A program made the translations under genes and the position numbers. The notes below the pieces were generated by a model that saw nothing but the letters and a program-made list of their open reading frames with translations, was not told the DNA's origin and searched no databases. Shown piece after piece: positions 7,114 to 22,729 of a stretch of 64,000 bases of DNA. Source of the stretch: an uncultured Alphaproteobacteria bacterium (lineage in GTDB: Bacteria > Pseudomonadota > Alphaproteobacteria > Rs-D84); the NCBI GenBank assembly GCA_944392775.1, contig CALXXV010000011.1:8315-72314 (forward strand). Direction: 5' to 3'. Each line of letters opens with the position of its first letter. Position 1 is the stretch's first letter.

Positions 7114-7141
7114 AAGAAAATTATAGGAAGATCTTAGTTCG

Positions 7142-7468
7142 TTAAGCAACGAATTTTTTCCCAAATATAAAGTCAGGTTTTTTACTAAGTTCAATGATAG
7201 TATTTATATCATCTTTTTCGGATGCATGTTGGCGTTTTTCTTTGCCGCATATTTCACATTTATGAGTAATTATAAAACCTTCGCCGCTTTTTTCTATAGA
7301 AATGGGGCGCATCATTCCACCGCAATTTGATGCCCGATCTCCTGGGCTATTATCAACGTGTCGTGACCATAAACATTTAGGACAGTGGTTTGTATATCCG
7401 TTCCCATGAACAACTGCGCCACAATGGGCGCAGTTAAAATTCTCAACTGTTTTTGTGAATTTTTTCAT
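7142..7468 (-). CDS. RNHCP-domain zinc-ribbon protein
   Basis: Motifs CAHCG...YTNHCPKCLWSRHVD...CGGMMRP...HKCEICG match the RNHCP domain pattern. The start overlaps the gapR stop (TAATG). Confidence 0.7.
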   Translation of the reverse strand: MKKFTKTVENFNCAHCGAVVHGNGYTNHCPKCLWSRHVDNSPGDRASNCGGMMRPISIEKSGEGFIITHKCEICGKEKRQHASEKDDINTIIELSKKPDFIFGKKFVA

Positions 7469-7716
7469 TATAGACCTAATGCTGTTCTATACATTTGTGT
7501 TAATTCATCAGCTTCATCTAATTCATCTGGATCCATCTTGCGTAGACGTATCATCTGACGAATGTATTTTGGATCAAAACCAGCAGATTTTGCCTCGCTA
7601 TAAATTTCTTTAATATCTGCTGCAATAGCGGCAGTTTCTTCGTTTAATTTTTCAATACGTTCAATTATGCTAAGCAATTGTTGATTGTCAATTGCGCCGT
7701 GATTTGCTTCTTTCAT
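7468..7716 (-). CDS. gapR: GapR-like nucleoid-associated protein (DUF2312)
   Basis: QLLSIIERIEKLNEETAAIAADIKEIYSEAKSAGFDPKYIRQMIRLRKMD aligns closely, from memory, with Caulobacter GapR. Confidence 0.85.
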   Translation of the reverse strand: MKEANHGAIDNQQLLSIIERIEKLNEETAAIAADIKEIYSEAKSAGFDPKYIRQMIRLRKMDPDELDEADELTQMYRTALGL

Positions 7717-7806
7717 GCAGATTTCCCCTTGTCTTTTACTGAACCTTATGATATACCATAAATCATAAAAATCAAGAAAAACAAAGTTAAAAATAAGTAG
7801 GTAAAA

Positions 7807-9177
7807 ATGAATAAGTTTACTAAAATTACAGCATCCATAGGTCCAAAATGTGAGGATAAAGAGACTTTAACAAAAATGATTCAAGCTGGCGTAAATATGT
7901 GTCGTTTGAATTTTAGTCATGATACAGGTGACGTTCAGGGAAGAAAAATTGATTTAATAAGGGAAATTTCTTCCGAATTAAATATTCCTGTTGCAGTTAT
8001 GATTGATTTGCAGGGGCCAAAACACCGCATAGGTAATTTTGAAACGGAAGATAAATATCCTCTTTCTGTTGGGCAAAAATTTATATTTGATTCTGATCCG
8101 ACACCGGGTAATTCAGAACGTGTTCAATTACCAGATGCAGATGTTATGGCATCTTTAAATGTAGGTGATAGAATTTTATTAAATGATGGAAAAATTGAAA
8201 TGAAGGTAGACGCTGTTTCTCCGAATAAAATAGAAGCAGTTGTTTTGCGTGGAACTGAAATTTGGTCCAGACGCGGTTTCAATCTTCCAGACACAGAGAT
8301 ATCTACATCTGTTTTAACAAAAAAGGACAGGGAAGATTTAGATTATGCTTTGACCAAAAATCCAGATTGGGTTGCAATTTCTTTTGTTCAAAAGCCAGAA
8401 GATATTGCGGAAGTACGTGATTTTATAATGGCCCGTACAGATCATCCTGTAAAAATAATTGCAAAGATAGAACGTCCAAATGCTGTAGAGCGAATTACTG
8501 AAATTGCAGCCGTGGCTGATGGTATAATGATCGCACGCGGTGATTTGGCTGTTGAAGTCCCTTTTGAAAAATTACCGGCTATTTCACGTCATATAATTCG
8601 TGAATGCCGTAAAATGAATAAACCGGTTATAATGGCAACTCAAATGTTAGGAACGATGGTAAATAGCGAATTTCCAACACGTGCAGAAATTACAGACGTT
8701 GCAAATACCGCTTATTTGCGCGCGGATTCCACGATGACATCAGAAGAAACTACGATGGGAATAAACCCTGTAAATGTTATCGAAACAATGACGAAAATTC
8801 TTTCGTATTCAGATGCAGATGCTATTGCAAATCCGTATGATTGGTCTAGAGTTGAAAATGTTCCGGAAAACGATTGGTCTCGAAGCGTTGCTTCAATGGC
8901 TTATTTAAACAAAGCCTCGGCAATAGTTGTTTTTGCAAGAGATACTGTAATTGCAACAGAAATTTCTTGTCGTAAACCTGATATACCTATCGTCGCAGTT
9001 TGTAGGGAAGGACTTGTTGCAAATCAGTTGTGTTTGGCTCGTGGTATATTCCCTATTTATGATGAAGACTTATTCGCTAAACGTGACGCATTTAACGCCG
9101 CTAGGAAATTTGGGGTAAATGACGGTAAACTGGTAATAGTAGATGAAGATAAAATTAGTTTACGAACTTTGGAATAA
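7807..9177 (+). CDS. pyk: Pyruvate kinase
   Basis: Motifs MCRLNFSHD, IAKIERPNAV and MIARGDLAVEVP, plus an ATQML segment. Confidence 0.95.
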   Translation: MNKFTKITASIGPKCEDKETLTKMIQAGVNMCRLNFSHDTGDVQGRKIDLIREISSELNIPVAVMIDLQGPKHRIGNFETEDKYPLSVGQKFIFDSDPTPGNSERVQLPDADVMASLNVGDRILLNDGKIEMKVDAVSPNKIEAVVLRGTEIWSRRGFNLPDTEISTSVLTKKDREDLDYALTKNPDWVAISFVQKPEDIAEVRDFIMARTDHPVKIIAKIERPNAVERITEIAAVADGIMIARGDLAVEVPFEKLPAISRHIIRECRKMNKPVIMATQMLGTMVNSEFPTRAEITDVANTAYLRADSTMTSEETTMGINPVNVIETMTKILSYSDADAIANPYDWSRVENVPENDWSRSVASMAYLNKASAIVVFARDTVIATEISCRKPDIPIVAVCREGLVANQLCLARGIFPIYDEDLFAKRDAFNAARKFGVNDGKLVIVDEDKISLRTLE

Positions 9178-9198
9178 AATAAAAATTATATGTGTTAT

Positions 9199-9237
9199 AG
9201 CGGCGGGAAAATTATTGACCGCCGTTATGTTTTTTTA
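9199..9237 (+). terminator. Rho-independent terminator after pyk
   Basis: GCGGCGG...CCGCCG hairpin followed by a T-run. Confidence 0.6.
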
Positions 9238-9254
9238 TTAAACTTAAAATTGAA

Positions 9255-10412
9255 ATGAAAGGGATTTTAAGATTATTTTTTATAACATATATGTTCACAT
9301 TACCGGCCTTTGGGGCGCAGTATAAGGCGGTATTGGTTGCGGATATGGATACAGGTCGTGTTTTATATCAAGAAAATTCTAATGTACAAAATTATCCGGC
9401 TAGTTTAACAAAAATTATGACCTTGTATTTAACTTTTGATGCTTTGGAGCATGGACGTTTACATTTAGATGATTATTTAATCGTTTCTCAATCTGCAGCA
9501 GCTGCTTCTCCGGTAAAACTTGGTTTGGTGGCGGGTAGTAAGATAAAGGTTGAAGATGCAATCAAAGCGCTTACTGTTTTAAGCGCTAATGATGTTGCAC
9601 GAGTTTTGGCTGAAAATTTAAAAGGTGGTAAAGAGGGAAATTTCGCAGATTTGATGACACGTGTTGCAAGTGAAATAGGTTTGTCTGGTACGCATTTTGA
9701 AAATTCTTCTGGTCTTCCTAATGATGATCAATTGTCTACTGCGCGTGATATTGCGCTGTTGTCCATGGCTATATATAAGCATTTTCCACAATATTGGAAA
9801 TATTTTAGTATAAAAACATGGACTTATAATGGAAAAACTTATACGAATGGCAATCGTTTGTTGGGTACATATCCTGGGTGTGACGGCATGAAAACTGGGT
9901 ATACGAATAAATCTAAATATTCCTTGGTTGCAACGGCAGAACAGAATGGACATCATTTAATATCTGTCGTTTTAGGCGCAGAAAATAAAGATATTCGTGC
10001 AAACGTTTCTGTTCAAATGTTGAACAAAGGTTTTGAAATGGTAAACGGTCATGCTGAAACCGTTTATAGTAGTTATTATGTACCAGTTGAAAAAAATAAT
10101 TCAAATGTCGCCCCAACTTTTAGTGCGGCATATGTTGCTGCAACAAGTGGTACAAATAGAAACGGTAATAGTGTTTCTGTAACTAATTCTGCTTCTGGTA
10201 AGGCCGGCGTGCAATTTGGGGCTTTTTCTTCAAGATCATCAGCACAGGCACAGGTAAATAATGTAAAAAATACTTTGGGTATAAATACAGTGATAGAAAC
10301 GGCTCCTAATGGTATGTTCAGAGTAAGAGCAAACGGTTTGTCAGAAAGTTATGCCCAAAGTATAAAACAAAAAGCACAAAATTCTGGTATTGATAGTTAT
10401 GTGTTTCACTAG
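9255..10412 (+). CDS. D-alanyl-D-alanine carboxypeptidase (PBP5/6, S11) with C-terminal SPOR domain
   Basis: Signal peptide. Motifs SLTK (SxxK), SAN (SxN) and KTG. The C-terminal segment GVQFGAFSSRSSAQAQ...FRVRANGLSESYAQSIKQK is SPOR-like. Confidence 0.9.
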   Translation: MKGILRLFFITYMFTLPAFGAQYKAVLVADMDTGRVLYQENSNVQNYPASLTKIMTLYLTFDALEHGRLHLDDYLIVSQSAAAASPVKLGLVAGSKIKVEDAIKALTVLSANDVARVLAENLKGGKEGNFADLMTRVASEIGLSGTHFENSSGLPNDDQLSTARDIALLSMAIYKHFPQYWKYFSIKTWTYNGKTYTNGNRLLGTYPGCDGMKTGYTNKSKYSLVATAEQNGHHLISVVLGAENKDIRANVSVQMLNKGFEMVNGHAETVYSSYYVPVEKNNSNVAPTFSAAYVAATSGTNRNGNSVSVTNSASGKAGVQFGAFSSRSSAQAQVNNVKNTLGINTVIETAPNGMFRVRANGLSESYAQSIKQKAQNSGIDSYVFH

Positions 10413-10421
10413 GTAAAAAAA

Positions 10422-11021
10422 ATGAACGTAAAAATAGAAAAGCTTATAAAACAGTTCGCAAAGTTGCCACGTCTTGGTTCAAGGGCTGGTCAAAGAATTG
10501 TATTGGCATTACTGCAAGATAAAACTGGGCGTGCAATGAATTTAGCGAATGCTTTGATAGATGCGACTGCTTCTATTGAACCGTGTCCTATATGTGGTGT
10601 TTTAACCGATAAAGAAATGGGTGTGTGTGAATTTTGTAGAGATGGTGCTAGGGCAAATGGTCAGCTTTGCATTGTTCGTGATTTGTCTGATGTTTGGACT
10701 TTAGAAAAATCTGCCGTTTTTCACGGGAAATATCATATCTTAGGCGGACTTTTATCTGGGGTTGCAGGTATGACCCCAGAGGATTTAAATATCTCTAATT
10801 TGTCTGAACGGGTAAAGAACGAAAACATTTCCGAGATAATTTTTGCTTTGCCAAATACTGTCGAAGGCAAAACTACTCAACATTATGTAATGTCCATTAT
10901 TGGTAATAATAGTAATGTCTGTTTTTCAGAACTTGCGTCTGGTGTTCCATTAGGCGGAGATTTAGATTATCTGGATGATGGTACTTTAACGTTGGCTTTT
11001 GGGGGACGAAAAAAATTATGA
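10422..11021 (+). CDS. recR: Recombination protein RecR
   Basis: C4 zinc finger (CPICG...CEFC) and a Toprim segment (LCIVRDLSDVWTLE). Confidence 0.95.
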   Translation: MNVKIEKLIKQFAKLPRLGSRAGQRIVLALLQDKTGRAMNLANALIDATASIEPCPICGVLTDKEMGVCEFCRDGARANGQLCIVRDLSDVWTLEKSAVFHGKYHILGGLLSGVAGMTPEDLNISNLSERVKNENISEIIFALPNTVEGKTTQHYVMSIIGNNSNVCFSELASGVPLGGDLDYLDDGTLTLAFGGRKKL

Positions 11022-11845
11022 TCATTGATGATTTAAATACTTTACCGCCTGTTTCTACAATGATGCGTGATGCAGGGCTAGAGCCTAAAAAGCAATTCGG
11101 ACAGAATTTTTTATTTGATTTAAATTTAACGGGTCGTATTGCAAAAAGTGTGCCTGATATAGAAAATATAACTGTTGTTGAAGTAGGCCCAGGACCGGGT
11201 GGCTTAACGCGTGCCTTATTATTGGCAGGCGCAAAACAAGTAATAGCTATAGAAAAAGATAAAACGACTGAACCCATTTTGGCTCAGATATCAGATAAGG
11301 CTTCTGGACGTTTAAAAGTTATTTATGATGATGCATTAAAAGTAGATTTTTCTAAGTTAGGTATAAAAGAATATGCTATTTGTTCAAATTTGCCTTATAA
11401 TGTAGGAACAGAATTATATGTAAATTGGTTATTACGTGTAGCAAGGGGAGAACCAATAAAATCTATGACTCTTATGTTTCAACGTGAAGTAGCATTGCGT
11501 ATAATTGCTAGGGCACGAGACAAACAATATGGTCGCCTTTCTGTTTTAACGTCTTTACTTTCAGACGCAAAAATATTATTTGATGTTTCTAATACCGCTT
11601 TCGTTCCGCGACCGAAAGTTCAAAGTTCTGTTGTTCAAATTATGCCTAATTTGAAAAAGATTGATCGAATTGATGATGTTGATGCAATTGGAACGCTGAC
11701 TGCTAGGTTGTTCAGTCAAAGACGAAAGATGATTCGTGGTATAATTCCGGGGGTTGATTGGCAGCAGTTTGGATTGACCGGGACAGAAAGGGCGGAAGAA
11801 ATCAGTCCTGAAACTTTTGCAAATATGGCTAAATTTTTGGTATAA
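11018..11845 (+). CDS. rsmA: 16S rRNA (adenine1518/1519-N6)-dimethyltransferase
   Basis: Motifs QNFLFD, VVEVGPGPGGLT and SNLPYNVGT. ATGA overlap with recR. Confidence 0.95.
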   Translation: MIIDDLNTLPPVSTMMRDAGLEPKKQFGQNFLFDLNLTGRIAKSVPDIENITVVEVGPGPGGLTRALLLAGAKQVIAIEKDKTTEPILAQISDKASGRLKVIYDDALKVDFSKLGIKEYAICSNLPYNVGTELYVNWLLRVARGEPIKSMTLMFQREVALRIIARARDKQYGRLSVLTSLLSDAKILFDVSNTAFVPRPKVQSSVVQIMPNLKKIDRIDDVDAIGTLTARLFSQRRKMIRGIIPGVDWQQFGLTGTERAEEISPETFANMAKFLV

Positions 11846-11870
11846 TATTCTATAAAGAGAGAAAATAACT

Positions 11871-13574
11871 ATGTCTTTATCGATTTTAATATTTTTTGCC
11901 ATAGTTTTTATTTTTGTTTGTGTGTTACGTTTGGCAAAAATAGGTGCTTTATGTGCTTTTTTATTGGCAGGGGTTATTTCAGGACCATACGTATTAAATT
12001 TATTCGAGTTAACAGATACATGGACATTTTTGGGTGAACTGGGAATTTTGTTTTTGTGGTTTAATCTTGGTTTAGAAATAAACATGAAACGACTTTGGGA
12101 AATGCGGCGTACAATATTTGGTTTTGGGGCGGCACAAGTATTGATGGTTGCAATAATGCTTTTCCCTATTTTGTTTGGGGTTACAAGTTGGTCTATATTA
12201 GGCTGTATAATGGTTTCCTTGTTGCTTGCTATGTCAAGTACCTCAGAAGATGTACAAATTTTAACTGATAAAAATTTATTAAATACAAATATGGGGCAGC
12301 AAACCTTTTCTATTTTATTATTTCAAGATTTATTATCTATTCCGCTTCTTGCGATGTTACCTGTTTTTGCGGGGAAAAGTTTTAATCTTGGTGCAACGGC
12401 TATAGATATATTTGTCTTGTCTGCTGCATTAATTGTTGGGGTGGTAATTGTCGGACGATTCATTATAAATCCGTTGATGAAAGCTGTTTCTAAATTAAAA
12501 TCAAAAGAAGCGTTTTTATTAGCAATAATGATAAACATAATTGCATGGGCGCTGGTTATGGATTTTATAGGATTACCCGTCGGGTTGGGGGCTTTTTTGG
12601 CCGGTATGTTATTATCAGAAACAATATATCGGCATCAAATTAGTGCAGAAATAACCCCTTATGCAATGTTATTTTTAGCGTTCTTCTTCATATCATTGGG
12701 TATGGAATTGAATTTACCGTTTTTATCGGATAATTGGTATATAGTATTAGGTGGCGTTGTAGCTTTAATAGCAATAAAATTTGCGGCTATATTCATGGTC
12801 GCAAGAGTTCGCCATGTTCCTTCGTCAGAGGCCGCTTCAATTGCATTGATTTTAGCGCAAGGGGGTGAATTTGGTTTGTTAATGTTGCAGACAATGAAAA
12901 CATCGGGTATAGATGCATTGCCACAATCACATCAAGAAATTTTAACTGCGATAATAATATTATCTATAATGGTAACGCCGATTTTATTTGCTGTGTATGA
13001 TAAATTACGTAGATCAGGTAAATTGTTTTCTAAAACACCTTTAAATCAGCCAATTGAACAAAAAAATAAAGAAAAACCTGCTGTTGTAATATGTGGTTTT
13101 GGACGCGTGGGGCGGATCGTTGCAAAAATGTTAGAAGCGCAAAATATATCATATATTGCAATAGATTTAGACGTAGATGTCGTTATGTTAGGAAGAGAAT
13201 ATGGTTTTAATGTTGTTTATGGGGATACACGTAATGAAGGGGTGTTGCGAGATTTAGGTTTGCGACCTCGTTATACAAAGGCAGTTGTTGTTGCATTGGA
13301 TGGTGCGACGAATGCACGTGAAACGGTTTTGACGATTAAAAATATTGCACCACGTGTAAAGATTTTTGCAAGGGCGCGAAATTTAGCAGATTCAAAAATC
13401 TTGTTAAAAGAAGGGGTTTTTGAAGCGCAACCAGAAACCATAGAGTCTTCCTTATTCTTAGCATATGGGGTATTAACTCATTTAGGTTTTTCTGATAAGA
13501 AAATAGACGACTTATTTGATCAAATGCGTGCAGATAATTATGCTATGATTGACAGTAATTTATCTGCAGAATAA
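11871..13574 (+). CDS. Kef-type (CPA2) K+/H+ antiporter with C-terminal TrkA-N/RCK domain
   Basis: Polytopic N-terminal region, AQGGEFGLL motif and Rossmann motif VVICGFGRVGR. Confidence 0.85.
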   Translation: MSLSILIFFAIVFIFVCVLRLAKIGALCAFLLAGVISGPYVLNLFELTDTWTFLGELGILFLWFNLGLEINMKRLWEMRRTIFGFGAAQVLMVAIMLFPILFGVTSWSILGCIMVSLLLAMSSTSEDVQILTDKNLLNTNMGQQTFSILLFQDLLSIPLLAMLPVFAGKSFNLGATAIDIFVLSAALIVGVVIVGRFIINPLMKAVSKLKSKEAFLLAIMINIIAWALVMDFIGLPVGLGAFLAGMLLSETIYRHQISAEITPYAMLFLAFFFISLGMELNLPFLSDNWYIVLGGVVALIAIKFAAIFMVARVRHVPSSEAASIALILAQGGEFGLLMLQTMKTSGIDALPQSHQEILTAIIILSIMVTPILFAVYDKLRRSGKLFSKTPLNQPIEQKNKEKPAVVICGFGRVGRIVAKMLEAQNISYIAIDLDVDVVMLGREYGFNVVYGDTRNEGVLRDLGLRPRYTKAVVVALDGATNARETVLTIKNIAPRVKIFARARNLADSKILLKEGVFEAQPETIESSLFLAYGVLTHLGFSDKKIDDLFDQMRADNYAMIDSNLSAE

Positions 13575-13600
13575 TCTGTTATAAAATATTTTGATAAAAA

Positions 13601-13626
13601 GTCCCCAAAAGAACGGGGACTTTTAT
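13601..13626 (+). terminator. Rho-independent terminator
   Basis: GTCCCC-AAAAGAAC-GGGGAC hairpin followed by TTTT. Confidence 0.7.
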
Positions 13627-13679
13627 ATTTGATTTTATATGATTGTATTGTTATATTTCGAGAAATGAGAGGATAATAT

Positions 13680-14210
13680 ATGAAAAATAAAATACTAAAA
13701 TATTTGTTCATAATAATAGGAATTGTATTATTAGATCAAATTTCAAAGGGGGTATTGTTATATCTTATAACTGGTGGTTTGCCAGTAGTAGGATCTGCGT
13801 GGGAAATTGTCCCTTTCCCTTATTTGATGACCCAAGTCTGCAATTTCTTTAATATAGTTTTTACGTGGAATCCAGGTGCTTCATTTTCAATGCTACGCGC
13901 TGTCGGAGAAGCTGCGCCTATTATAATAATTGTAGTAACAGGATTTATAATAGGTTTTATAGGATATTATTTATTTAAAAAGGCTCGTTATTATGAACGA
14001 TTACCTTTGGCTTTGATCGTTGGTGGGGCTTTAGGAAATTTAATTGATAGGATTCGTTTTGGTGCTGTTATAGATTTCTTGGATTTTCATATTGGTGGCT
14101 GGCATTGGCCTGCGTTTAATGTTGCGGATATTTGTATCGTTGTGGGTGTCGGATTATTTGTCTTGAATTGGTATATTGCAAGACGTCGTTGTTTAGAAAA
14201 TGTCAAATAA
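13680..14210 (+). CDS. lspA: Lipoprotein signal peptidase II
   Basis: Motifs WNPGASFS, GGALGNLIDR and FNVADICI. Confidence 0.9.
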   Translation: MKNKILKYLFIIIGIVLLDQISKGVLLYLITGGLPVVGSAWEIVPFPYLMTQVCNFFNIVFTWNPGASFSMLRAVGEAAPIIIIVVTGFIIGFIGYYLFKKARYYERLPLALIVGGALGNLIDRIRFGAVIDFLDFHIGGWHWPAFNVADICIVVGVGLFVLNWYIARRRCLENVK

Positions 14211-14237
14211 AAGATAAATAAAAGGTGGTAAATAATC

Positions 14238-15827
14238 ATGGTAAAATATTTAGAAAATAATTACGGCTTTAAACAATGGAACGCCAATAAAGATGCTGCA
14301 AAAAGCTCGAAAAAATCTAAATTAGGTGGCTTTTTATGGTGGTTTATTTTATTCTTGGCGTCTTGGTGGTTAATCGGTTTATGGATGACGCCAAAAAATA
14401 TTGAAACGAAAGTTACAGAAGAAAAAATCGTCTTAGAAGATTTATCTAATGTACCCGTTTCTGAAATTTTTTCAGAAGATATTATCGCTAATGTTCAAGG
14501 ATTGCGTATTTATGATGTTAAATTATTAAAGTTTTCAAAAAATGGTGCAGATACCGACAATACTATTCATGTTTCTTTACTAAATAGTGATGGGGCGTTT
14601 GCAGAGGTTGGTTTTTTATCACCTACTACGACAGTCCCCGTTGCAACAACTGTATGGAAAAAAGATGGTGATTCTTTTACATGGAAAAATTCAAATGGAA
14701 TAGAATTCCGTAGAAATATAACTGTAGATGGTTATGTAATATCTGTTGCGGATACAATAAAAAATTCATCTGATACTGATATATTTATTGCACCATATGC
14801 AAGATTGATAAGGGCAAATGATATGCCTTCTTCTGCCGGTGTTTATACAGGTGCAATAGCTTTTGTAAATTCAGATATAGAACGTGAGAGTTGGCAAAAT
14901 TTGGAAAGAAAATCTTTTGCTTATTCCACAGCAAGCGGTTTTATAGGGTTTGCTGATCAATATTGGGAAACGATAATATCTGTTGATAACCCCGATCAAA
15001 CATTAAAAGTAAAAAAGGTAGGCGGTTTATATGAAGCAGATATTGCAAGTAATTCAGTATCAATAAAAGCCGGGGAAACAAAAACTATAAATACGAATTT
15101 ATTTGTTGGTCCACGTGAACAAAATGTTTTAAATGCAGCAGAACAGAAAATTGCGGGCATAGATGAAACTATTGACTACGGTTGGTTTTGGTTTTTAGCG
15201 CGTCCTATGTTATGGGCATTGAATGGGCTTAATTCAATAGTTATGAACTATGGCGTTGCTATAATAATTTTAACTATATTGTTGCGTCTTGTTATATGGC
15301 CACTTACAAGAAAGTCATATACATCAATGATTGCGATGCAAAAAATGCAACCAGAAATGGCACGTATACAAAAATTATATGCAAATGATAAGGCGCGTAT
15401 GCAAATGGAGCTGATGCGTTTATATCAGACACATAAAACATCTCCTATGTCAGGTTGTTTACCGATGCTTATACAAATACCCATATTTTTTGCATTGTAT
15501 AAAGCCTTGTTAATATCTGTTCAAATGCGTAGTGCACATTTCTTATGGATATCTGATTTGGCTGCGATGGATCCGTACTTTATATTGCCTATATTGATGG
15601 GGTTAACAATGTGGTTGCAACAATATTTACAGACAGCATCAACTGCAAAGAAAGAAGAGAATAAAAACGATCCTGTTGCGCAGACTCAGAAAGTAATGAA
15701 GTGGATGCCATTGATATTTACTGTAATGTTTGCATGGATGCCCGCAGGTTTAGTTTTATATTGGACAGTATCAAATATATTTGGTATTGGTCAGATGTTT
15801 TACATAAAGAAATTTGTAAATAAATAA
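14238..15827 (+). CDS. yidC: Membrane protein insertase YidC
   Basis: Large periplasmic domain, then the conserved 60-kDa insertase core (ILTILLRLVIWPLT, MQKMQPEM, GCLPMLIQIPIFFALY). Confidence 0.95.
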   Translation: MVKYLENNYGFKQWNANKDAAKSSKKSKLGGFLWWFILFLASWWLIGLWMTPKNIETKVTEEKIVLEDLSNVPVSEIFSEDIIANVQGLRIYDVKLLKFSKNGADTDNTIHVSLLNSDGAFAEVGFLSPTTTVPVATTVWKKDGDSFTWKNSNGIEFRRNITVDGYVISVADTIKNSSDTDIFIAPYARLIRANDMPSSAGVYTGAIAFVNSDIERESWQNLERKSFAYSTASGFIGFADQYWETIISVDNPDQTLKVKKVGGLYEADIASNSVSIKAGETKTINTNLFVGPREQNVLNAAEQKIAGIDETIDYGWFWFLARPMLWALNGLNSIVMNYGVAIIILTILLRLVIWPLTRKSYTSMIAMQKMQPEMARIQKLYANDKARMQMELMRLYQTHKTSPMSGCLPMLIQIPIFFALYKALLISVQMRSAHFLWISDLAAMDPYFILPILMGLTMWLQQYLQTASTAKKEENKNDPVAQTQKVMKWMPLIFTVMFAWMPAGLVLYWTVSNIFGIGQMFYIKKFVNK

Positions 15828-15831
15828 AAAT

Positions 15832-15860
15832 AAACGCCCATTTAAGGGCGTTTTAATTTT
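15832..15860. terminator. Bidirectional terminator shared by yidC and the convergent 111-aa gene
   Basis: AAACGCCC-ATTTA-AGGGCGTTT hairpin flanked by A- and T-runs. Confidence 0.65.
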
Positions 15861-16177
15861 TTATATAGGCTATATGGGGTTTGAATAAATGGGGCTTTCA
15901 TACCGATAAATTTTTTTGTAAAATTAACGCATGTTTTAGCTTTTTTCATTTTATTTGGTCTATCAGCTTTTAACGTGATAAAATCCCAGCCGGCATTAAG
16001 AAGTAATTTTAAACCTAATTTATTTAGTTCTATTTTGACTATTTTATTAGAGTTTACGAATTGTAAAAGTATATATTTTTTATGTGTATATATTATAGGT
16101 GCACAGTGTTTGTATTTTCTGCAAAATATTTTAGGTAAAATTTTAGATGTTTTTTTTGAGAACGCTATTATTAGCAT
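15842..16177 (-). CDS. Hypothetical 111-aa basic protein; possible minimal permuted papain-fold (YiiX/C92-like) enzyme
   Basis: AGAGGA Shine-Dalgarno sequence. N-terminal IIAFSKKTSK...KYKHCAPIIY resembles the His box of E. coli YiiX (as recalled from memory), and C-terminal KTCVNFTKKFIG resembles its Cys box. This is inference only. Confidence 0.4.
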   Translation of the reverse strand: MLIIAFSKKTSKILPKIFCRKYKHCAPIIYTHKKYILLQFVNSNKIVKIELNKLGLKLLLNAGWDFITLKADRPNKMKKAKTCVNFTKKFIGMKAPFIQTPYSLYKKLKRP

Positions 16178-16197
16178 CAGATTCCTCTTTTATTTTT

Positions 16198-16219
16198 CCG
16201 CACGCGTTTCGGCGTGCGG
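16198..16219. other. GC-rich intercistronic hairpin between the two small minus-strand genes
   Basis: CCGCACGC-GTTTCG-GCGTGCGG, an 8-bp perfect GC-rich stem in an AT-rich context. No U-tract follows on the transcribed (minus) strand. Confidence 0.45.
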
Positions 16220-16225
16220 TTAAAA

Positions 16226-16576
16226 TCATTTTTCTATCCAACCACGATGTAAAGCTGCTGTTTCTAAAATTTGCATTGCATGTTTCCATAAATCAGCGTC
16301 GTGATTTTCTGCCCAGATATATTGATGAGGGGCCCGACGACGATCTCCAAATTTTTTCATAACGTAAAGTTGTTCTTCTGTTAATTTACCAGATAAATAT
16401 AGTTTAGTAATTAATGTTTCTACATCCAGTAACTCACATGGGCGTTTTGTACAGCTGTTATGTTTTTGTATAAAACCGTTCTGTACAGACTTTGAATATA
16501 AGAACCAGAACCACAATTGTTCTGCATTTTGAAATCTCTCGGTTGTATATACTGGTTGTGTATTTTGGCGTTTCAT
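16226..16576 (-). CDS. Hypothetical 116-aa Trp-rich protein, unknown function
   Basis: Strong AAGGAGGAAG Shine-Dalgarno sequence ahead of the ATG. I recognise no family. The segment KLYLSGKLTEEQLYVMKKFG is vaguely helix-turn-helix-like. Confidence 0.5.
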   Translation of the reverse strand: MKRQNTQPVYTTERFQNAEQLWFWFLYSKSVQNGFIQKHNSCTKRPCELLDVETLITKLYLSGKLTEEQLYVMKKFGDRRRAPHQYIWAENHDADLWKHAMQILETAALHRGWIEK

Positions 16577-16745
16577 TTATCTTCCTCCTTTTTGTTTTGT
16601 TACATGAAACGATATATAGAACATGAATAGAAAACTGTAAAAGGTTACAACTAAGGGTTGAACGTCGAATCGGATTTCTGATTCGTTAAAGCGTTTTTGT
16701 TGTTTTAATTCGAATCGTACGTTTTTGTGTTTTTATAGAAAAAGA

Positions 16746-16772
16746 AAAACGCGCAAAACTTGCGCGTATTTA
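16746..16772. terminator. Second terminator-like hairpin in the virB10-distal intergenic region
   Basis: ACGCGCAA-AACT-TGCGCGT with T-rich sequence on the minus-strand side (TTTTTCTTTTTC) and AT-rich sequence on the plus side. Confidence 0.45.
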
Positions 16773-16830
16773 ATTATTTCTTATTTTATTTATATTATAT
16801 CAAAAACTCCTATTGTTTTCAATTATATAT

Positions 16831-16860
16831 TAAAAAAAACCTGCTTTTAATAGCAGGTTT
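16831..16860 (-). terminator. Rho-independent terminator of the virB8-10 operon
   Basis: On the minus strand, AACCTGC-TATTAAAA-GCAGGTT followed by T8. It overlaps the virB10 stop codon. Confidence 0.7.
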
Positions 16861-19381
16861 AATATAATATTGGCGGGAAACAATCACCACCAGTTTCGGG
16901 GCAGCAATTAAATCCTTGTTCTCCCATATCTGTATATATTTCACCAGGGCAACATCCATATTCATCAGGTAATGTACCGTTTTCATCACAAGTAATGACA
17001 TTAACAACAGTTTCTTGTGTGCTTGTTCCTGATTCCGAAGATTGAAACGGATTTTGGATGGTCCCGTCTTCGTTATAGGTTAATCCAAGTATATCTTCAT
17101 TATAAGATTGACCGCCTTGGATGCCTGTTAATCCAGTCAAGTTTTGTTGATTATTATAGTTATCAAATGTTGAATCTGTACCATAAGTATTTTGGAAGTT
17201 TGTTTTTTGACTTTGATACAATGCATCTTGTTTTGCATTGTTTATTGCTTGATAACTGGCTGAACGACAATAGAATTCAACTGTGCTAAAACTATAACCC
17301 GCCGCATTTATTTCTGATAATGTCTGGCTATCTGTCTTTGCTTTATATGCACCGCTATCTTCATCCAATTCGCACCATTGTGCCATATTGAAGGAACGTA
17401 CCTGTCCAACCCAAGAACCGTCCGTGTAATCAACAAATACATTATTTGCCCAATTGTCATTACGTTGATTACGTGGGTCTTGTAAACCGGTTGCTTCTTG
17501 CATATTTTTTACAGAGCACTTTTTAGAATTGTCTTTACCACATGTTATAACAAGGTCTGTTGGTGAAAATACTGTAATACGAGTTCCTGCTGCAATAGAG
17601 AATGGAGGTACGGTATTTTCCATCATATCAACCAATAATTTCTGTGCGACTTGATTCCATGCAGTTATAATTTCATTTTTTGCAAGTTCAGAAGAACGAA
17701 CAGTACCAGATTGAACGACCGTATTATTGTCTAAATCGATTTGATTAATGAATGTATCTGATATTGGCGCGATCATATTTACAGCAGCAGGAACGATTGC
17801 CGTCAGCATCGGCATAACAAATTGTTCTACGTAATCTGTACTTCCATGTCCTGGTACACCAACGCGTCCTTGTGAATCACCAGAAAATGGAGTGTTTGTA
17901 CCCTGAAAGTTAAATTCCACGCCATTTGGTAATATAAATTGATACCAGTTTATATTCATGCGTCCAATTGATTTATAAGGTCCAGGTAGCTCACCATTAA
18001 GATAGCCCAACAAAAGTGTTCCTGCAGGAATAACAACTGTTCTGCCATTATCTGAATATACGTTTCTATCAACTGTTGCACGAACAGGTAACGATTGACT
18101 TGTACATACACCATTTTGGTTCATTGATGTACAATAAACAGAAGGGTCTGCACGAACTTCAGAAACAATAGTTGCGGGGATTGGTTTATATTGACGTAAA
18201 ACAAATGTTCTATCAAATGGGTCTGAAGAATAGGTCGCAATTTTGCTGCTTGTTCCAACAATAACATCATTATTTTGTTCTTGTTTTACAATATGAGAAA
18301 TAATTGATGTAGAAGGACTTGGAATCGGCAAAGACGATATTTCTTCGGTTGTTAACTGACGTGCTTTATTTATTACTTTTTTTGTTGTCGGGTTTGACAA
18401 CTGAGGTATTGTACCATTAGTTATGATAGAATATCCGATATGTTCGGCATCTGTTCCTATTTTTGTTGCCCGATCTTTTATATCTGTAATTATACCTGTG
18501 TTAGGATTGTATACACCTGTAGGAGTGTCACAATTTTTATCTGAAAAAGGATGAAAATAATAAGCGCCTGCTTCTGGTTTTATCCAACCGCTTTGAACAC
18601 CTGATAAGTTATATCCAGGAAAGGCGAAATCAGAACATGATTCAGCAGGTGTTTTTTCTTCTTCTATGATATTTTGTGACTTAGGTTCCGTTTTTTCTTC
18701 TATAAACACTTTTGCAGGAGCAATCGTTTCTAGTTCTTCTTTTATTTCTTGTTTGATGGGAGCTGTTTCTTTTTCTAATACAGGCTCCTCTTTAATAATT
18801 TCTTCTGTTACTGTTTGGGTAACGCTTTCTTTTATTTGCGTATCTGGTAATGAGGCATTAAGCTTTTCTGGTTCAAGCTTCATTTCTGCACCCACAACAA
18901 AAATAACTTTCGAAGTGGTTTTTATTGCGTCTGGTTCATTTATGCCACGCCAATCTATATAAAGCTCAACCGTTTCAGTTTTTATTTCTTCTGTAGGTTG
19001 ATAGTCTACAATTATTGTACAAGAGTTATTTAAGTCGACTTGACCTTTACGTGTACATGTTTCTTGTGGCACGTTAGATAAGCCATTTATATTTTTTTGC
19101 CAGTGTATATCCAATATTTTTGCTGGGGCACTGGAAGAAACTTTTATTGTTTGTTCTTCTTTTTCGCCTATTTTTGTGTCTGCCCAGTTTATAGAATCCG
19201 GCGATATATTTAAAGTTATTTTTAGTTCTTCTGAATTTTTAATTTCTTCCTTTTCTTTCTGGGTAAATAATAGCGTTAATAATATCAGTACAACAACAAA
19301 AGCGGCCGCTAATAATAGCCATTGAATATGTTTTGGAGTGCTTTTTCGTAAATCTGAAAATTGCTTTTTTATATTTTCCAT
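16859..19381 (-). CDS. virB10: VirB10/TrbI-family T4SS core protein, atypically large (840 aa)
   Basis: N-terminal TM. TrbI-type domain at about aa 395-612 (VRATVDRNVYSDNGRTVVIPAGTLLLGY...RMNINWYQFILPNGVEF...DSQGRVGVPGH, then antenna-like helices). Extra N- and C-terminal domains. Confidence 0.85.
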   Translation of the reverse strand: MENIKKQFSDLRKSTPKHIQWLLLAAAFVVVLILLTLLFTQKEKEEIKNSEELKITLNISPDSINWADTKIGEKEEQTIKVSSSAPAKILDIHWQKNINGLSNVPQETCTRKGQVDLNNSCTIIVDYQPTEEIKTETVELYIDWRGINEPDAIKTTSKVIFVVGAEMKLEPEKLNASLPDTQIKESVTQTVTEEIIKEEPVLEKETAPIKQEIKEELETIAPAKVFIEEKTEPKSQNIIEEEKTPAESCSDFAFPGYNLSGVQSGWIKPEAGAYYFHPFSDKNCDTPTGVYNPNTGIITDIKDRATKIGTDAEHIGYSIITNGTIPQLSNPTTKKVINKARQLTTEEISSLPIPSPSTSIISHIVKQEQNNDVIVGTSSKIATYSSDPFDRTFVLRQYKPIPATIVSEVRADPSVYCTSMNQNGVCTSQSLPVRATVDRNVYSDNGRTVVIPAGTLLLGYLNGELPGPYKSIGRMNINWYQFILPNGVEFNFQGTNTPFSGDSQGRVGVPGHGSTDYVEQFVMPMLTAIVPAAVNMIAPISDTFINQIDLDNNTVVQSGTVRSSELAKNEIITAWNQVAQKLLVDMMENTVPPFSIAAGTRITVFSPTDLVITCGKDNSKKCSVKNMQEATGLQDPRNQRNDNWANNVFVDYTDGSWVGQVRSFNMAQWCELDEDSGAYKAKTDSQTLSEINAAGYSFSTVEFYCRSASYQAINNAKQDALYQSQKTNFQNTYGTDSTFDNYNNQQNLTGLTGIQGGQSYNEDILGLTYNEDGTIQNPFQSSESGTSTQETVVNVITCDENGTLPDEYGCCPGEIYTDMGEQGFNCCPETGGDCFPPILY

Positions 19382-19403
19382 ATTTTATCCGCATTTACTG
19401 ATT

Positions 19404-20948
19404 TTATTGAACTCTAACTATGCTACAGCTTACACCTTGTGATTGAGTTAATTGGTTGCATAATTTTTGTGCAACCTCTATATCAGACAGTGGACCTATG
19501 CGCAACCTATATAATCTTGCTGCGGAAGAGTCTGCGCCTAATTCACCAACGCCTTGTTCGTCTACGGCAAAAAATACCATGTCTTTATAAGGTGCTAGAA
19601 TACCTTGACCATCTTCCCCGCTAAATTTAGCTAATAAAGTGGCCCAATAATCATTTAATGCTTTTACAGATGTATCTGATTTTAGTTCTATTGCAACGCC
19701 AGTCTGGTTTGATGTTATCAATGGTATGTTAGATTGCGGCAAGAAAGAACCAGCTGTTATACGTTCTGTCGGTATCATTGATAATCCACTTGAACTGCTT
19801 GAGCCATACGTCACATTTGGAATTCCATAACCTGCAGGCATGTAATAACCTGCTGTACTTGTTCCCATTGGATTATTTCCGACAAACATAGGGGTTGTTG
19901 TATAGTTACCAACAGATGCATTTATTGCTGAAAGATCTGCGTTATATGCAATATTGTTTAAAGATTGACCAGATAACATACTTTGTGCTACGTTCGCTTC
20001 GGCTAATGCCATAACAGATGCAGTATCAGCGATTAAGAAAGGCTTTTCACGTTTTTTTATACATACTATTCTTTGACCGCTACGAAGTACCATATCACCT
20101 ACGGCTTCTACTATTAAAAGTCTTCCGTCTTCACCATCTGTACGGAACCCTACCGGAGATTCACCCCCTTCAACTAATAATGATACAACAGGACGTTGCG
20201 TCATAGCAATAACTTTGTCCCCAAAATCAATGTAAGTAAATATTTGATCGCGCCATACACGTTCAGGGGCAATTACATAATCATCAGGATTAGGTACAAA
20301 TATATCTAAATCAAACCTAAATTCTGATGGGTCTATTTTCATTGATTTTATCCAACCATAATCTTCCCCATCAACACCAACTGTATTGTTAGATGATGAT
20401 GCTTTTTTGAATATTGATGCAGAACCATTAGAATTTGAAGTTGTATTAGATGCTGTTGGTAAAGACGTGTTCCCGTCCAAAATGACGTCTACTTGTGAAT
20501 ATGTAATTTCACTTGAGTTGGATGGTTCACTACGAAGATAAAATATATATTGATTTCCAGATTTTCCGGTAACAATGAAATTTGTATCGGAGCCTTGGTT
20601 GCTGGACTCTGGGCTAATTAGAATAGTGCTTCCGCCTGGTTGTGCGTCAAATTTGAATAAGCCTTCATTGCCGACGACTGCATCTGCAATTTGTTCGCCG
20701 TTTGGCAAAGTTATCATTGTGACCATACCGTTACGAAGTTTCACTGGTAACACACTACCTTTTGTCCAACTTAATTGCGCGTATCCGGGTTTTGTACTGC
20801 CTGCTGCCATATTGGCGGTCGGATTATCCCAAGCGCTTTGTACCCCATAATTATAACCGGTTACGTCTGCTGATAATGCCTGATTATTGCATAACATAAT
20901 CAAACAAATAATAGATACGTTTATTTTTAGTGCTTTTGAGAAAGTCAT
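19404..20948 (-). CDS. virB9: VirB9/CagX-family T4SS core protein fused to a C-terminal SPOR domain
   Basis: Signal peptide. VirB9 N-domain-like (VTMITLPNGEQIADAVVGN...TNFIVTGKSGNQYIFYL) and C-domain-like (IFTYIDFGDK...PVVSLLVEGGESPVGFRTDG...LIVEAVGDMVLRSGQRIVCI) segments. C-terminal ARLYRLRIGPLSDIEVAQKLCNQL...CSIV is SPOR-like. Confidence 0.8.
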   Translation of the reverse strand: MTFSKALKINVSIICLIMLCNNQALSADVTGYNYGVQSAWDNPTANMAAGSTKPGYAQLSWTKGSVLPVKLRNGMVTMITLPNGEQIADAVVGNEGLFKFDAQPGGSTILISPESSNQGSDTNFIVTGKSGNQYIFYLRSEPSNSSEITYSQVDVILDGNTSLPTASNTTSNSNGSASIFKKASSSNNTVGVDGEDYGWIKSMKIDPSEFRFDLDIFVPNPDDYVIAPERVWRDQIFTYIDFGDKVIAMTQRPVVSLLVEGGESPVGFRTDGEDGRLLIVEAVGDMVLRSGQRIVCIKKREKPFLIADTASVMALAEANVAQSMLSGQSLNNIAYNADLSAINASVGNYTTTPMFVGNNPMGTSTAGYYMPAGYGIPNVTYGSSSSSGLSMIPTERITAGSFLPQSNIPLITSNQTGVAIELKSDTSVKALNDYWATLLAKFSGEDGQGILAPYKDMVFFAVDEQGVGELGADSSAARLYRLRIGPLSDIEVAQKLCNQLTQSQGVSCSIVRVQ

Positions 20949-20971
20949 GCCTTTTCCTTCCGTTTCTTTTT

Positions 20972-21709
20972 TTATTCCGTAGTATTTTCCAAATAACCTG
21001 TATTCAATGGATCCCCGTTTCCTGATTCTATTTCATATTCAGAGACCCGAATGCCTAATGGATTATTTATACGATCGGACCATTTTATCGTTGCGCTGTC
21101 GTCAACATCTAATTTTATTCTTATTTTATACTCTTTTTTATCCATCTGTCTATCACTATCTGAACAAAAATAGTAAAAATTTACTAAGTATACGTTTTCT
21201 GAGTATGGTTCAAATGCATTATTGCCAAATTCTACAGAGCAAGAAAACTCAAAATCTGGTAGACCAGACATCCATGCATTCCACATATTGGTTTTAGTAA
21301 ATTCGTTATATACATCTTGTGAAGACCACTCGTATACAACACCGTCAATACCGTTGTTCCATTTTGTTCGCATTACATTTGCGTTTGGCACGATTTCGTT
21401 TCGTGCTTTAAGATATTCTCTTATAAATGCCCTTTTGTATCGGTTTAAATTTTCATCATTTGGAACCATTTCGTATAATAAAATTTGTAAGTCACTTTTG
21501 GGACTAGTTGTTAGAAAGAAGACTTGGGGTCTGTTTAGTGGGTACATGTTATATAACGTTACAACAAGTGCGCATAACACAACAAGCATTGCTACAAAAG
21601 TGAAAGTAAGTAGTCTTGATAGTAAAATTGGCGGTTCTACACGGTCTTGCAATGTATTCCTCTCTCTGTTATCAAGAAGATTGTAGAAAAAAATGTGATG
21701 ATAGTGCAA
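20972..21709 (-). CDS. virB8: VirB8-family T4SS inner-membrane protein
   Basis: Short cytoplasmic N-terminus, one TM and a periplasmic domain ending in the characteristic NPLGIRVSEY motif (compare NPLGF.V..Y). The TTG start is uncertain. Confidence 0.8.
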   Translation of the reverse strand: MHYHHIFFYNLLDNRERNTLQDRVEPPILLSRLLTFTFVAMLVVLCALVVTLYNMYPLNRPQVFFLTTSPKSDLQILLYEMVPNDENLNRYKRAFIREYLKARNEIVPNANVMRTKWNNGIDGVVYEWSSQDVYNEFTKTNMWNAWMSGLPDFEFSCSVEFGNNAFEPYSENVYLVNFYYFCSDSDRQMDKKEYKIRIKLDVDDSATIKWSDRINNPLGIRVSEYEIESGNGDPLNTGYLENTTE

Positions 21710-21882
21710 GTAAAAAGTACTCTAAAATCAGATTTAAATTAAAAAATCTTTCAGTTTTTACTTGCACATTAAATGTGAAACTTTTATAATACTTTCCACT
21801 TGATTTTTTGTATAAGTGTGCTATTGTAACGCAGACTATTGGGGTTTGGCGGTACAGCAGACGGTAAAAGTTATGTATAAAT

Positions 21883-21956
21883 AGGGGCATAGTTCAACGG
21901 TAGAATATCGGTCTCCAAAACCGCGGATGAGGGTTCGATTCCTTCTGCCCCTGCCA
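21883..21956 (+). tRNA. trnW: tRNA-Trp (anticodon CCA), CCA end encoded
   Basis: Manual cloverleaf: acceptor AGGGGCA/TGCCCCT, anticodon loop CTCCAAA, T-loop TTCGATT, 74 nt. It sits in the classical position ahead of secE-nusG. Confidence 0.95.
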
Positions 21957-21996
21957 GAATTCTGGGGTTTATATAGTCAAAATATAGGCAAGTTTT

Positions 21997-22176
21997 ATGA
22001 AAAAATTACTAGAATATATTAAGTCGGTTCGAAGTGAATGGTTTAAGATAGTTTGGCCATCTCGTGATGCTGTTATTAGGGCAACTGTAATGATTTTAAT
22101 ATTTTCTGGGTTGGCAGCGTTGTTCTTTTTTGTTATAGATAGCTGTTTAAATACAGTTGTTGGTTGGATTTTCTAA
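21997..22176 (+). CDS. secE: Preprotein translocase subunit SecE (59 aa, below the ORF-track cutoff)
   Basis: MKKLLEYIKSVRSEWFKIVWPSRDAVIRATVMILIFSGLAALFFFVID: the conserved E..KV.WP motif followed by a single TM. Conserved position between tRNA-Trp and nusG. Confidence 0.85.
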   Translation: MKKLLEYIKSVRSEWFKIVWPSRDAVIRATVMILIFSGLAALFFFVIDSCLNTVVGWIF

Positions 22177-22195
22177 GCTGGAAAAGGAAGTACTG

Positions 22196-22729
22196 ATGGA
22201 AGAAAAAATGCAATGGTTTGTCGTGAATGTTCATACGGGTTGCGAAGATAAGGTTGCGCGTGGTTTGCGTGAACAGATTGATAAACGTCGTTTAAATGCT
22301 TATTTTGGTGAAATACTTGTCCCCACGCGTGAGGTTACTGAGATAAAAGCTGGTAAGCGGGTAAAATCAGAAAAGAAGTTCTTCCCAGGCTATATAGTTG
22401 TTCAAATGGTTATGAATAATGAAACTTTTTCTTTAGTAAAATTAATGCCTCAGGTTGTTATGTTTTTGGGTGCAAAGAATAAGCCTATTGCTGTTACTGA
22501 AGAAGAAGCTCGTCGTTTATTAAAACAGGTTGAAGAAGGTTCGGTTGTTACAGAAGATGTTGAATATGAAGTAGGACAAGAAGTACATGTAATTGATGGG
22601 CCTTTTGCAGGTTTTAATGGTGTTGTATCAGAAGTAGATAATTTAAAGCAAAAAATGACTGTGACTATTTTGGTCTTTGGTCGTGAAACAAGTGTAGAGC
22701 TGGACTTTACACAAGTAGAAAGAGTTTAA
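22196..22729 (+). CDS. nusG: Transcription termination/antitermination factor NusG
   Basis: NGN domain (QWFVVNVHTGCEDKV) and KOW motif (GQEVHVIDGPFAGFNGVV). The ATG at 22196 follows GGAAAAGGAAG. Confidence 0.95.
   Translation: MEEKMQWFVVNVHTGCEDKVARGLREQIDKRRLNAYFGEILVPTREVTEIKAGKRVKSEKKFFPGYIVVQMVMNNETFSLVKLMPQVVMFLGAKNKPIAVTEEEARRLLKQVEEGSVVTEDVEYEVGQEVHVIDGPFAGFNGVVSEVDNLKQKMTVTILVFGRETSVELDFTQVERV

Follow-up and report, generated by a model that had tools for sequence, protein, structure and literature searches.

The 64,000-nt stretch of DNA analysed here (the window, to which all coordinates refer unless another locus is named) comes from a Candidatus Enterousia-like alphaproteobacterium of the order Rs-D84, a host known from gut metagenome-assembled genomes (MAGs) of less than 1 Mb, and its minus strand carries, at 16859-21709, a compact trio of genes, virB8, virB9 and virB10. 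This trio is a core, vertically inherited chromosomal operon that is under purifying selection like yidC, and profile comparisons identify its products as homologues of VirB8 and of the VirB9/VirB10 core of mating-pair-formation type T (MPF-T) systems, very divergent from the canonical VirB proteins. Our favoured interpretation, which we hold to be somewhat better than an even bet, is that the trio forms the scaffold half of a VirB/MPF-T type IV secretion system (T4SS) that is inherited vertically and split between loci, its VirB4 ATPase being encoded elsewhere in the genome.

The virB8-like gene (20972-21709) encodes 245 aa when read from a TTG at 21709, the public gene call being 226 aa, and is followed after 23 nt by the virB9-like gene (19404-20948; 514 aa) and after another 22 nt by the multi-domain virB10-like gene (16859-19381; 840 aa). 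These open reading frame (ORF) coordinates agree with a first-pass annotation of the window, which had described three tightly spaced minus-strand genes with 22-23 nt gaps, and its assignment of the products to VirB8, VirB9 and VirB10 is upheld by profile hidden Markov models, since all three pass the relevant Pfam thresholds: VirB8 (PF04335) with 39 bits against a cut-off of 23.2, spanning model positions 5-211 of 213, CagX (PF03524) with 76.8 bits against 34.2 for VirB9, and TrbI (PF03743) with 63.5 bits against 35 for VirB10. Single-sequence searches of the PDB returned nothing significant for VirB8 and VirB9, and clade profiles were needed to reach solved structures. With these, VirB8 matched 4lso, 4jf8, 2bhm, 5i97 and 7o41 (E 1e-9 to 3e-7), and VirB9 matched the N-terminal domains of Xanthomonas VirB9 and R388 TrwF (E ~1e-4). 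The NCBIfam models gave no match to VirB8, the equivalog for the P-type conjugative transfer protein VirB9 (TIGR02781) failed at 51.3 bits against 217.7, and VirB10 failed both the T4SS_VirB10 equivalog-domain model (NF038091; 61.8 bits against 220) and the NCBIfam TrbI model (27 bits against 386). On these scores the VirB9 of the Enterousia locus is best described as a homologue and not as a canonical equivalog.

VirB8 is a bitopic inner-membrane protein by predicted topology, with a lone hydrophobic segment at residues 33-51 followed by a periplasmic VirB8 domain that ends in NPLGIRVSEY, the tail singled out in the first-pass annotation. VirB9 is predicted to be secreted. Its hydrophobic leader, a signal peptide, ends in ALSA and precedes the CagX region (residues 58-299; 20052-20777, minus strand), after which a low-complexity linker of ~130 aa, rich in Ser, Gly, Asn and Ala, leads to a C-terminal SPOR-like peptidoglycan-binding module (residues ~431-514; 19407-19658, minus strand) whose residues 474-512 match Pfam SPOR with 29.1 bits against a cut-off of 21. 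The module signature RLRIGP...C..L...C.VVR.Q is kept in 14 of the 14 lineages aligned, and the VirB9-SPOR fusion is therefore ancestral to the family. A full-text literature search found no description of such fusions. The window holds a second SPOR envelope protein no more than 10 kb from the first, a DacC-type D-Ala-D-Ala carboxypeptidase with a C-terminal SPOR domain (9255-10412, plus strand).

The most elaborate of the three proteins is VirB10, for which we rely on an AlphaFold2 model built from a diverse alignment (mean predicted local distance difference test score, pLDDT, 72.9), a shallow all-Enterousia alignment having given a pLDDT of 46 and an unusable barrel. All of the parts that follow are encoded on the minus strand. 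The protein begins with a cytoplasmic tail (residues 1-21) and a transmembrane helix (22-40; together 19262-19381) that are near-invariant in the alignment, the latter being both predicted as membrane-spanning and helical in the model, and the near-invariance of the tail suggests a partner in the cytoplasm or inner membrane. There follows an Ig-like (ASH/PapD-like) β-sandwich (residues 55-166; 18884-19219; pLDDT >94), which in Foldseek matches the ASH domains of CEP192, HYDIN and OCRL and which has a weak 'choice-of-anchor D' match in NCBIfam. A variable and disordered Glu/Lys/Pro-rich linker (residues 167-246; 18644-18883) stands where canonical VirB10 proteins have their proline-rich region, and leads to a novel, near-invariant β-rich middle domain (residues 247-316; 18434-18643; pLDDT ~88) that begins CSDFAFPGYNLSGVQSGWI and matched no Pfam family. 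The TrbI β-barrel (residues ~380-615; 17537-18244) comes next, and from it the model projects an antenna-like pair of helices (residues 516-537 and 563-589; hydrophobic over 522-540), at a pLDDT of 45-75 in what is a monomer model. Last comes a C-terminal extension of 225 residues (616-840; 16862-17536), made up of a helical domain and then a Cys-rich knot (residues ~798-840; 16862-16990; CCPGEIYTDMGEQGFNCCPETGGDCFPPI) with conserved cysteines and a pLDDT of ~87; neither the extension nor its knot matched Pfam. The model thus shows a VirB10 with an inner-membrane anchor at one end, formed by tail and transmembrane helix, and at the other a VirB10-type β-barrel with a predicted hydrophobic two-helix projection. 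By fold, the barrel matches those of CagY, TrwE, Xanthomonas VirB10, ComB10 and TraF, which adds to the Pfam evidence for VirB10 family membership. In solved core complexes, the two-helix projection of a VirB10-type barrel forms the outer-membrane pore. The remark in the first-pass annotation that the component architectures are unusual is amply borne out, with SPOR on VirB9 and the Ig/ASH-like domain, the β-domain and the Cys-rich extension on VirB10.

Two further features of VirB10 deserve mention. A Cys-bounded loop of the barrel (residues ~416-431; ~18089-18136, minus strand) is hypervariable, differing in length or missing altogether in a mosaic-wise fashion among orthologues that are 60-80% identical, which suggests an exposed surface that is diversifying or recombining. 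The Cys-rich knot is a module of ~40 aa with six cysteines (CCPGE.YTDMG..GFNCCP..GGDCFPPI) that is also found outside VirB10 (P0180, P0200, P0213, P0228, P0257, P0262, P0269 and P0263; 5584-6336 of L021), recurring as two or three tandem copies in small signal-peptide proteins and at the C terminus of a bitopic 746-aa protein. Its pattern in these other proteins is C-x6-CC-x13-CC-x6-C, the first spacer being longer in VirB10. Of two such proteins with gene context, one lies in a MacB/FtsX-type ABC (ATP-binding cassette) exporter operon and one is isolated, and neither is near T4SS genes; the 64-kb window holds no second copy of the module. A 746-aa ORF upstream of virB8 in locus L016 was considered as the Cys-module protein P0263 and rejected, being an unrelated protein of the leucine-rich-repeat (LRR) type.

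The genomic setting of the trio speaks for a resident chromosomal operon. In the window it is bounded on one side by a G+C-rich, intrinsic-terminator-like hairpin with a T-run (16837-16860, minus strand) that overlaps the virB10 stop and marks the operon end, with a second hairpin downstream (16767-16749). On the other side lie a 173-nt intergenic region (21710-21882, minus strand), which is the presumed promoter region and contains only weak sigma-70-like matches, then tRNA-Trp (21883-21956, plus strand), secE (21997-22176) and nusG (up to 22729), so that the first-pass placement of the operon between a terminator and tRNA-Trp-secE-nusG holds. The same order, rplK-nusG-secE-tRNA, virB8-virB9-virB10-o116-o111 and yidC-lspA, recurs in all nine species-level relatives. 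Across these nine, VirB9 is 69-87% identical and more conserved than YidC (57-81%), with VirB10 at 47-80% and VirB8 at 43-72%. Against the closest relative, with synonymous divergence (dS) near saturation, the ratio of nonsynonymous to synonymous substitution (dN/dS) is 0.043 for VirB9, 0.14 for VirB10, 0.05 for o116 and 0.09 for yidC, so that the operon as a whole, at 0.04-0.14, is comparable to yidC and lspA. Full-length VirB10 relatives (~820 aa) form hundreds of clusters in metagenomes, some of them on contigs of 0.7-1.0 Mb, and among species-representative genomes VirB10 is carried by 'Candidatus Enterousia sp.' and by alphaproteobacterial gut MAGs, with a circular chromosome of 958,618 bp (OZ007020.1) among them. 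Given these hundreds of orthologue clusters and the low dN/dS, we take the genes to be real.

These data also bear on the idea that the trio is what is left of a decaying integrated conjugative element or plasmid T4SS. That the locus holds just three of some twelve genes, and that neither a relaxase nor a coupling protein was found in the window, is what such decay would leave behind. Against a remnant stand the intact reading frames, the selection described above, and a chromosomal position between core genes that is the same in nine species-level genomes. The GC content of the operon (0.34-0.37) is the same as that of its flanks, which are free of integrases, repeats and mobile genes, and even the closest VirB10 from a plasmid reaches no more than 29% identity. 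The locus thus displays none of the relaxase, coupling protein, integrase, variable site or deviating composition of an integrative or conjugative element, and we consider a remnant extremely improbable, synteny, selection and composition having effectively refuted it.

Isolation of the trio at its locus is seen in other members of the wider family as well as in Enterousia. A VirB10 profile search over 1.8 billion representatives retrieved more remote VirB10 proteins that have the Ig, middle and barrel regions in common. In several of the lineages concerned, the trio again stands isolated among unrelated housekeeping genes (mutS/thrS in L014, clpB/PBP1a in L016, rbfA/bipA/gyrB in L024, and also in L025), and in two others a VirB9-VirB10 pair has a similar setting (beside sodB on a short contig in L018, and with rplM/grpE in L023). 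The description of the trio as an isolated core module in the first-pass annotation therefore extends to several other genomic contexts, and in most of the sampled lineages the core is genomically separate from any ATPase. Some outgroups add VirB8 paralogues, a secreted protein of ~120 aa after VirB10, and a VirB7-like lipoprotein of 48-59 aa in which a lipobox is followed by PVG.G...ELK.SPCAC (L019 4026-4190, L020 6687-6866 and L025 3692-3838); none of these three additions was detected at the Enterousia loci. The most informative of these relatives is an abundant gut alphaproteobacterial sister lineage (L020; ENA scaffold_106, 5972-17938) with the order VirB8-lipoprotein-VirB8-VirB9(SPOR)-VirB10-VirB11. 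Its VirB9-SPOR has 575 aa, its VirB10 has 2266 aa with β-flower repeats, and its VirB11, which NCBI annotates as TadA, matches that of Agrobacterium with 93 bits. Upstream of the cluster, which runs up to the end of the contig, are six ORFs without annotation. Among the loci fetched, VirB11 stands next to VirB10 in L020 alone. Its presence there implies that the family goes back to a T4SS that was driven by an ATPase and had its genes in the VirB/rvh order.

The other components of such a system were sought directly. A phmmer comparison of the complete Agrobacterium VirB1-VirB11/VirD4/TraA set with six-frame translations, both of the window and of all related loci, matched VirB9 and VirB10 alone, and these searches together with Pfam or a reading of all other ORFs found no VirB1-B7, VirB11, VirD4 or relaxase in the 64 kb, just as the first-pass annotation had stated. 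No ORF with a lipobox, as expected of a VirB7-like protein, is present in 15800-22200. Small divergent proteins of the missing kinds could nevertheless have gone unnoticed in all of these searches. Two baits taken from the outgroups were also employed. With the VirB11 of L020, all 120 matches listed were at least 70% identical and from the L020 lineage, and none of them was on a contig of Enterousia length, which makes this search uninformative for Enterousia, and a database search with a profile of the ~120-aa accessory protein gave 59 matches, none from Enterousia.

Several of these results weigh against a split, ATPase-driven system. Of the components that would complete an MPF-T system, VirB2, VirB3, VirB4, VirB6, VirB7, VirB11 and VirD4 were found neither in the 64-kb window nor at any Enterousia-type locus, and there is likewise no ATPase in the flanks (up to 10 kb) of the trio, or of the VirB9-VirB10 pair of L023, in several further lineages. 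All three proteins lie far below the NCBIfam equivalog cut-offs, and these scores may mean that their function has shifted. The sole published genome analysis of the Rs-D84 order names no secretion system (PMC12306168), and the placement of VirB4 and the inner-membrane parts at a second locus is itself something that we infer.

These same observations can be read to mean that the trio is self-sufficient and works without VirB4, either as a cell-wall-anchored, envelope-spanning portal for macromolecules or nutrients, passive or gated by the proton motive force, or as an adhesion or junction tether to partner cells. The three genes are always kept together, and in Enterousia and in several lineages where they sit in unrelated housekeeping neighbourhoods they are never linked to an ATPase. 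Their products show heavy accretion of domains (SPOR, Ig/ASH, the novel β-domain and the Cys knot), and the VirB7 and ~120-aa accessory protein of the outgroups were not found at the Enterousia loci. The core complex of pKM101, moreover, can assemble without the inner-membrane ATPases. The published genome analysis also fits, in that it reports neither a T4SS nor standard transporters (PMC12306168). We nevertheless regard a machine of this kind as unlikely. The VirB8 protein and the conserved cytoplasmic tail of VirB10 indicate an inner-membrane partner, and the L020 sister lineage keeps VirB11. Every known T4SS needs VirB4, and we know of no functional T4SS-derived system that lacks it. Scattering of the genes is, by comparison, well documented in reduced Alphaproteobacteria (PMC1366493).

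We therefore return to the split T4SS as the interpretation that we favour, because VirB4 is needed by every T4SS known to us, because the splits of the Rickettsiales and ComB systems are stable, and because VirB8 would otherwise have no obvious role in the trio; as an inner-membrane assembly factor, its retention counts for an ATPase-driven T4SS. In the Rickettsiales, the T4SS genes are divided between loci (PMC1366493), and the ComB system consists only of VirB2-4 and VirB6-10, doing without VirB11 or VirD4 but keeping VirB4, with ComEC as its partner (PMC12857230). According to this view, VirB9 and VirB10 would assemble an outer-membrane core complex that VirB10 ties to the inner membrane, while the long linker of VirB9 would let the SPOR module reach the peptidoglycan and pin the complex to the cell wall. 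SPOR domains are known for binding denuded glycan at the cell poles or the septum, and the module on VirB9 may do the same. The extra domains of VirB10 and the SPOR tail might substitute for the missing VirB7 lipoprotein or supply binding surfaces, and VirB8 together with the invariant VirB10 tail would engage inner-membrane partners. A VirB4-type ATPase and inner-membrane parts from a second locus would then drive the channel, as in the Rickettsiales and ComB systems.

What such a channel would carry is most likely to be cargo for contact-dependent exchange with a partner cell, since biosynthesis is largely missing from these bacteria, as are standard transporters. The Rs-D84 bacteria, Enterousia included, have genomes of less than 1 Mb without amino-acid, nucleotide or lipid biosynthesis, respiration or standard transporters, and it has been proposed that they depend on partner cells (PMC12306168). 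A plausible alternative cargo is DNA that is imported and handed to ComEC.

The latter possibility leads to a third explanation of the trio, namely that it belongs to a ComB-like DNA-uptake system in which double-stranded DNA would enter the periplasm through the core and ComEC would pass single strands to the cytoplasm, feeding a nucleotide auxotroph. The first-pass annotation had seen a resemblance to ComB in the arrangement of the genes and had pointed to a comEC gene in the same window, while leaving the function open. That gene is indeed there (5176-7194, minus strand) and is intact, encoding 672 aa with Pfam Competence (173 bits) and DUF4131 matches and no Pfam match for a C-terminal metallo-β-lactamase nuclease domain. 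Since ComEC is the partner of ComB (PMC12857230), its presence is in keeping with such a role, and so are the reported absence of nucleotide biosynthesis and the restriction of reported type IV pili to another lineage (PMC12306168). The best, and in fact the sole, match of VirB10 in a single-sequence PDB search is ComB10 (24 bits, E 8e-5). Closer comparison gave no specific support for an affinity to ComB, however. The ComB10 equivalog (NF038092) gives VirB10 48 bits against a cut-off of 300, less than the 62 bits of the generic VirB10 model, with both far below cut-off, and a Foldseek search with the barrel ranks CagY, TrwE, Xanthomonas VirB10, ComB10 and TraF about equally (target-normalised TM-score 0.55-0.61; E 4e-9 to 2e-6 for CagY, TrwE, Xanthomonas VirB10 and TraF), with no preference for ComB10. 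The VirB11 that directly follows VirB10 in L020 reflects the VirB/rvh gene order and not that of ComB, from which VirB11 is missing. In addition, comEC is 14 kb away, unlinked to the trio and of a kind widespread in bacteria, and equivalents of ComB2-4 were not found in the window or the loci. Uptake of the ComB type feeding ComEC therefore fits the missing nucleotide synthesis, with none of the sequence evidence being specific to ComB, and we think it a doubtful account of the trio.

Comparison with known systems places the split T4SS that we favour among several partial precedents. The Helicobacter pylori ComB system resembles it in that B8-B9-B10 are unlinked to VirB11/VirD4 and comEC is in the genome. 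It differs in that its operon also encodes ComB6 and the lipoprotein ComB7, with ComB2-4 at another locus, whereas none of these was seen in the window, the operon included. It differs as well in the absence of extra domains from ComB9 and ComB10 and in the wide margin by which the ComB10 equivalog is missed here. The rvh system of the Rickettsiales is likewise chromosomal and vertically inherited in reduced-genome Alphaproteobacteria and has the B8-B9-B10 order; it is split between loci and lacks VirB1, VirB5 and a recognisable VirB7 (PMC1366493). The sister lineage L020 shares with it a duplicated VirB8 and the adjacency of VirB10 and VirB11. However, rvh keeps virB8-virB9-virB10-virB11-virD4 in one block (PMC1366493), whereas here a terminator follows virB10 and o116, o111 and yidC come after it, and the rvh VirB9 and VirB10 are without the SPOR, Ig/ASH and Cys-rich additions.

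The VirB/Trw/pKM101 core (VirB7-VirB9-VirB10; PDB 3JQO, 7O3J and 6GYB) is similar in its VirB10 barrel with a two-helix projection, the latter being predicted here, and its VirB9 N-terminal domain and VirB8 periplasmic domain are homologous. The identity is only ~15-29%, though, VirB7 was not found here, and the trio lies outside any virB1-11 operon, with a VirB9 about twice and a VirB10 more than twice the canonical length through the added domains. For such enlargement of VirB9 and VirB10 homologues by extra domains, the CagX and CagY proteins of the Helicobacter Cag system provide a precedent (compare also the 2266-aa VirB10 of L020), and CagY is the top structural match of the barrel (6odi, 6x6k). 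The Cag genes, by contrast, are part of a pathogenicity island that also encodes Cagα (VirB11), CagE (VirB4) and Cagβ (VirD4), and their added domains are unrelated to those described here.

The genes that follow the virB10 terminator are o116 (16226-16576, minus strand; a 116-aa protein), which is preceded by a promoter-like site (16822-16794) and a strong ribosome-binding site of its own, o111 (15842-16177, minus strand; a basic protein of 111 aa) and then yidC. Neither o116 nor o111 matches a family in Pfam or NCBIfam, and o116 has no transmembrane segment. Both are syntenic in all Enterousia-type loci, at 62-77% and 42-62% identity, respectively. The two proteins are apparently cytoplasmic and specific to these loci, and they occupy the place that the ~120-aa secreted protein has after VirB10 in other lineages. 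In two of the nine relatives, a surface-protein gene is inserted before yidC: L005 has at 13525-15780 (minus strand), between o111 and yidC, a paralogue of a secreted 754-aa protein of the window, and L011 has an LRR (BspA-like) surface protein in the same slot (13497-16001, minus strand). The slot beside the T4SS operon is thus a variable surface-protein site. The 754-aa protein itself is encoded at 39480-41744 (minus strand) and has an N-terminal half rich in Thr, Ser and Arg, a Cys-rich C-terminal half and no Pfam family.

The other genes in the window are housekeeping genes (among others def, fmt, truA, pyk, recR, ksgA, lspA, yidC, the rplK-rpoC block, plsX, fabH and proS) and genes for envelope proteins, and an Rfam scan found three tRNAs and nothing else. 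Among the envelope proteins are a 907-aa autotransporter with Chlamydia-PMP repeats (35428-38151, plus strand) and a Pom-like porin of the Protochlamydia outer membrane protein family (49916-51418, plus strand), both of types typical of host-associated bacteria.

The Rs-D84 bacteria, and Enterousia with them, are common in animal guts, and the machinery by which they interact with partner cells has so far not been described (PMC12306168). A full-text literature search turned up no T4SS described in Rs-D84 or RF32 bacteria. The trio is the most obvious candidate for that machinery, as it codes for an envelope-spanning channel, occurs throughout the clade and is under a constraint similar to that of the essential genes beside it. 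For T4SS biology more generally, the family presents a VirB9 whose fusion to a cell-wall anchor of the SPOR type is ancestral, a VirB10 with three acquired domains not described before, among them a Cys-rich module in common with small secreted proteins, and a core that in most of the lineages sampled is uncoupled genomically from the ATPases. Should closed genomes prove to lack VirB4, this would be the first T4SS-derived machine to work without the universal motor of the family. In that event, the trio could serve these very small gut Alphaproteobacteria, poor in transporters as they are, and likewise the other lineages with an isolated trio, for taking up macromolecules or docking onto their partners.

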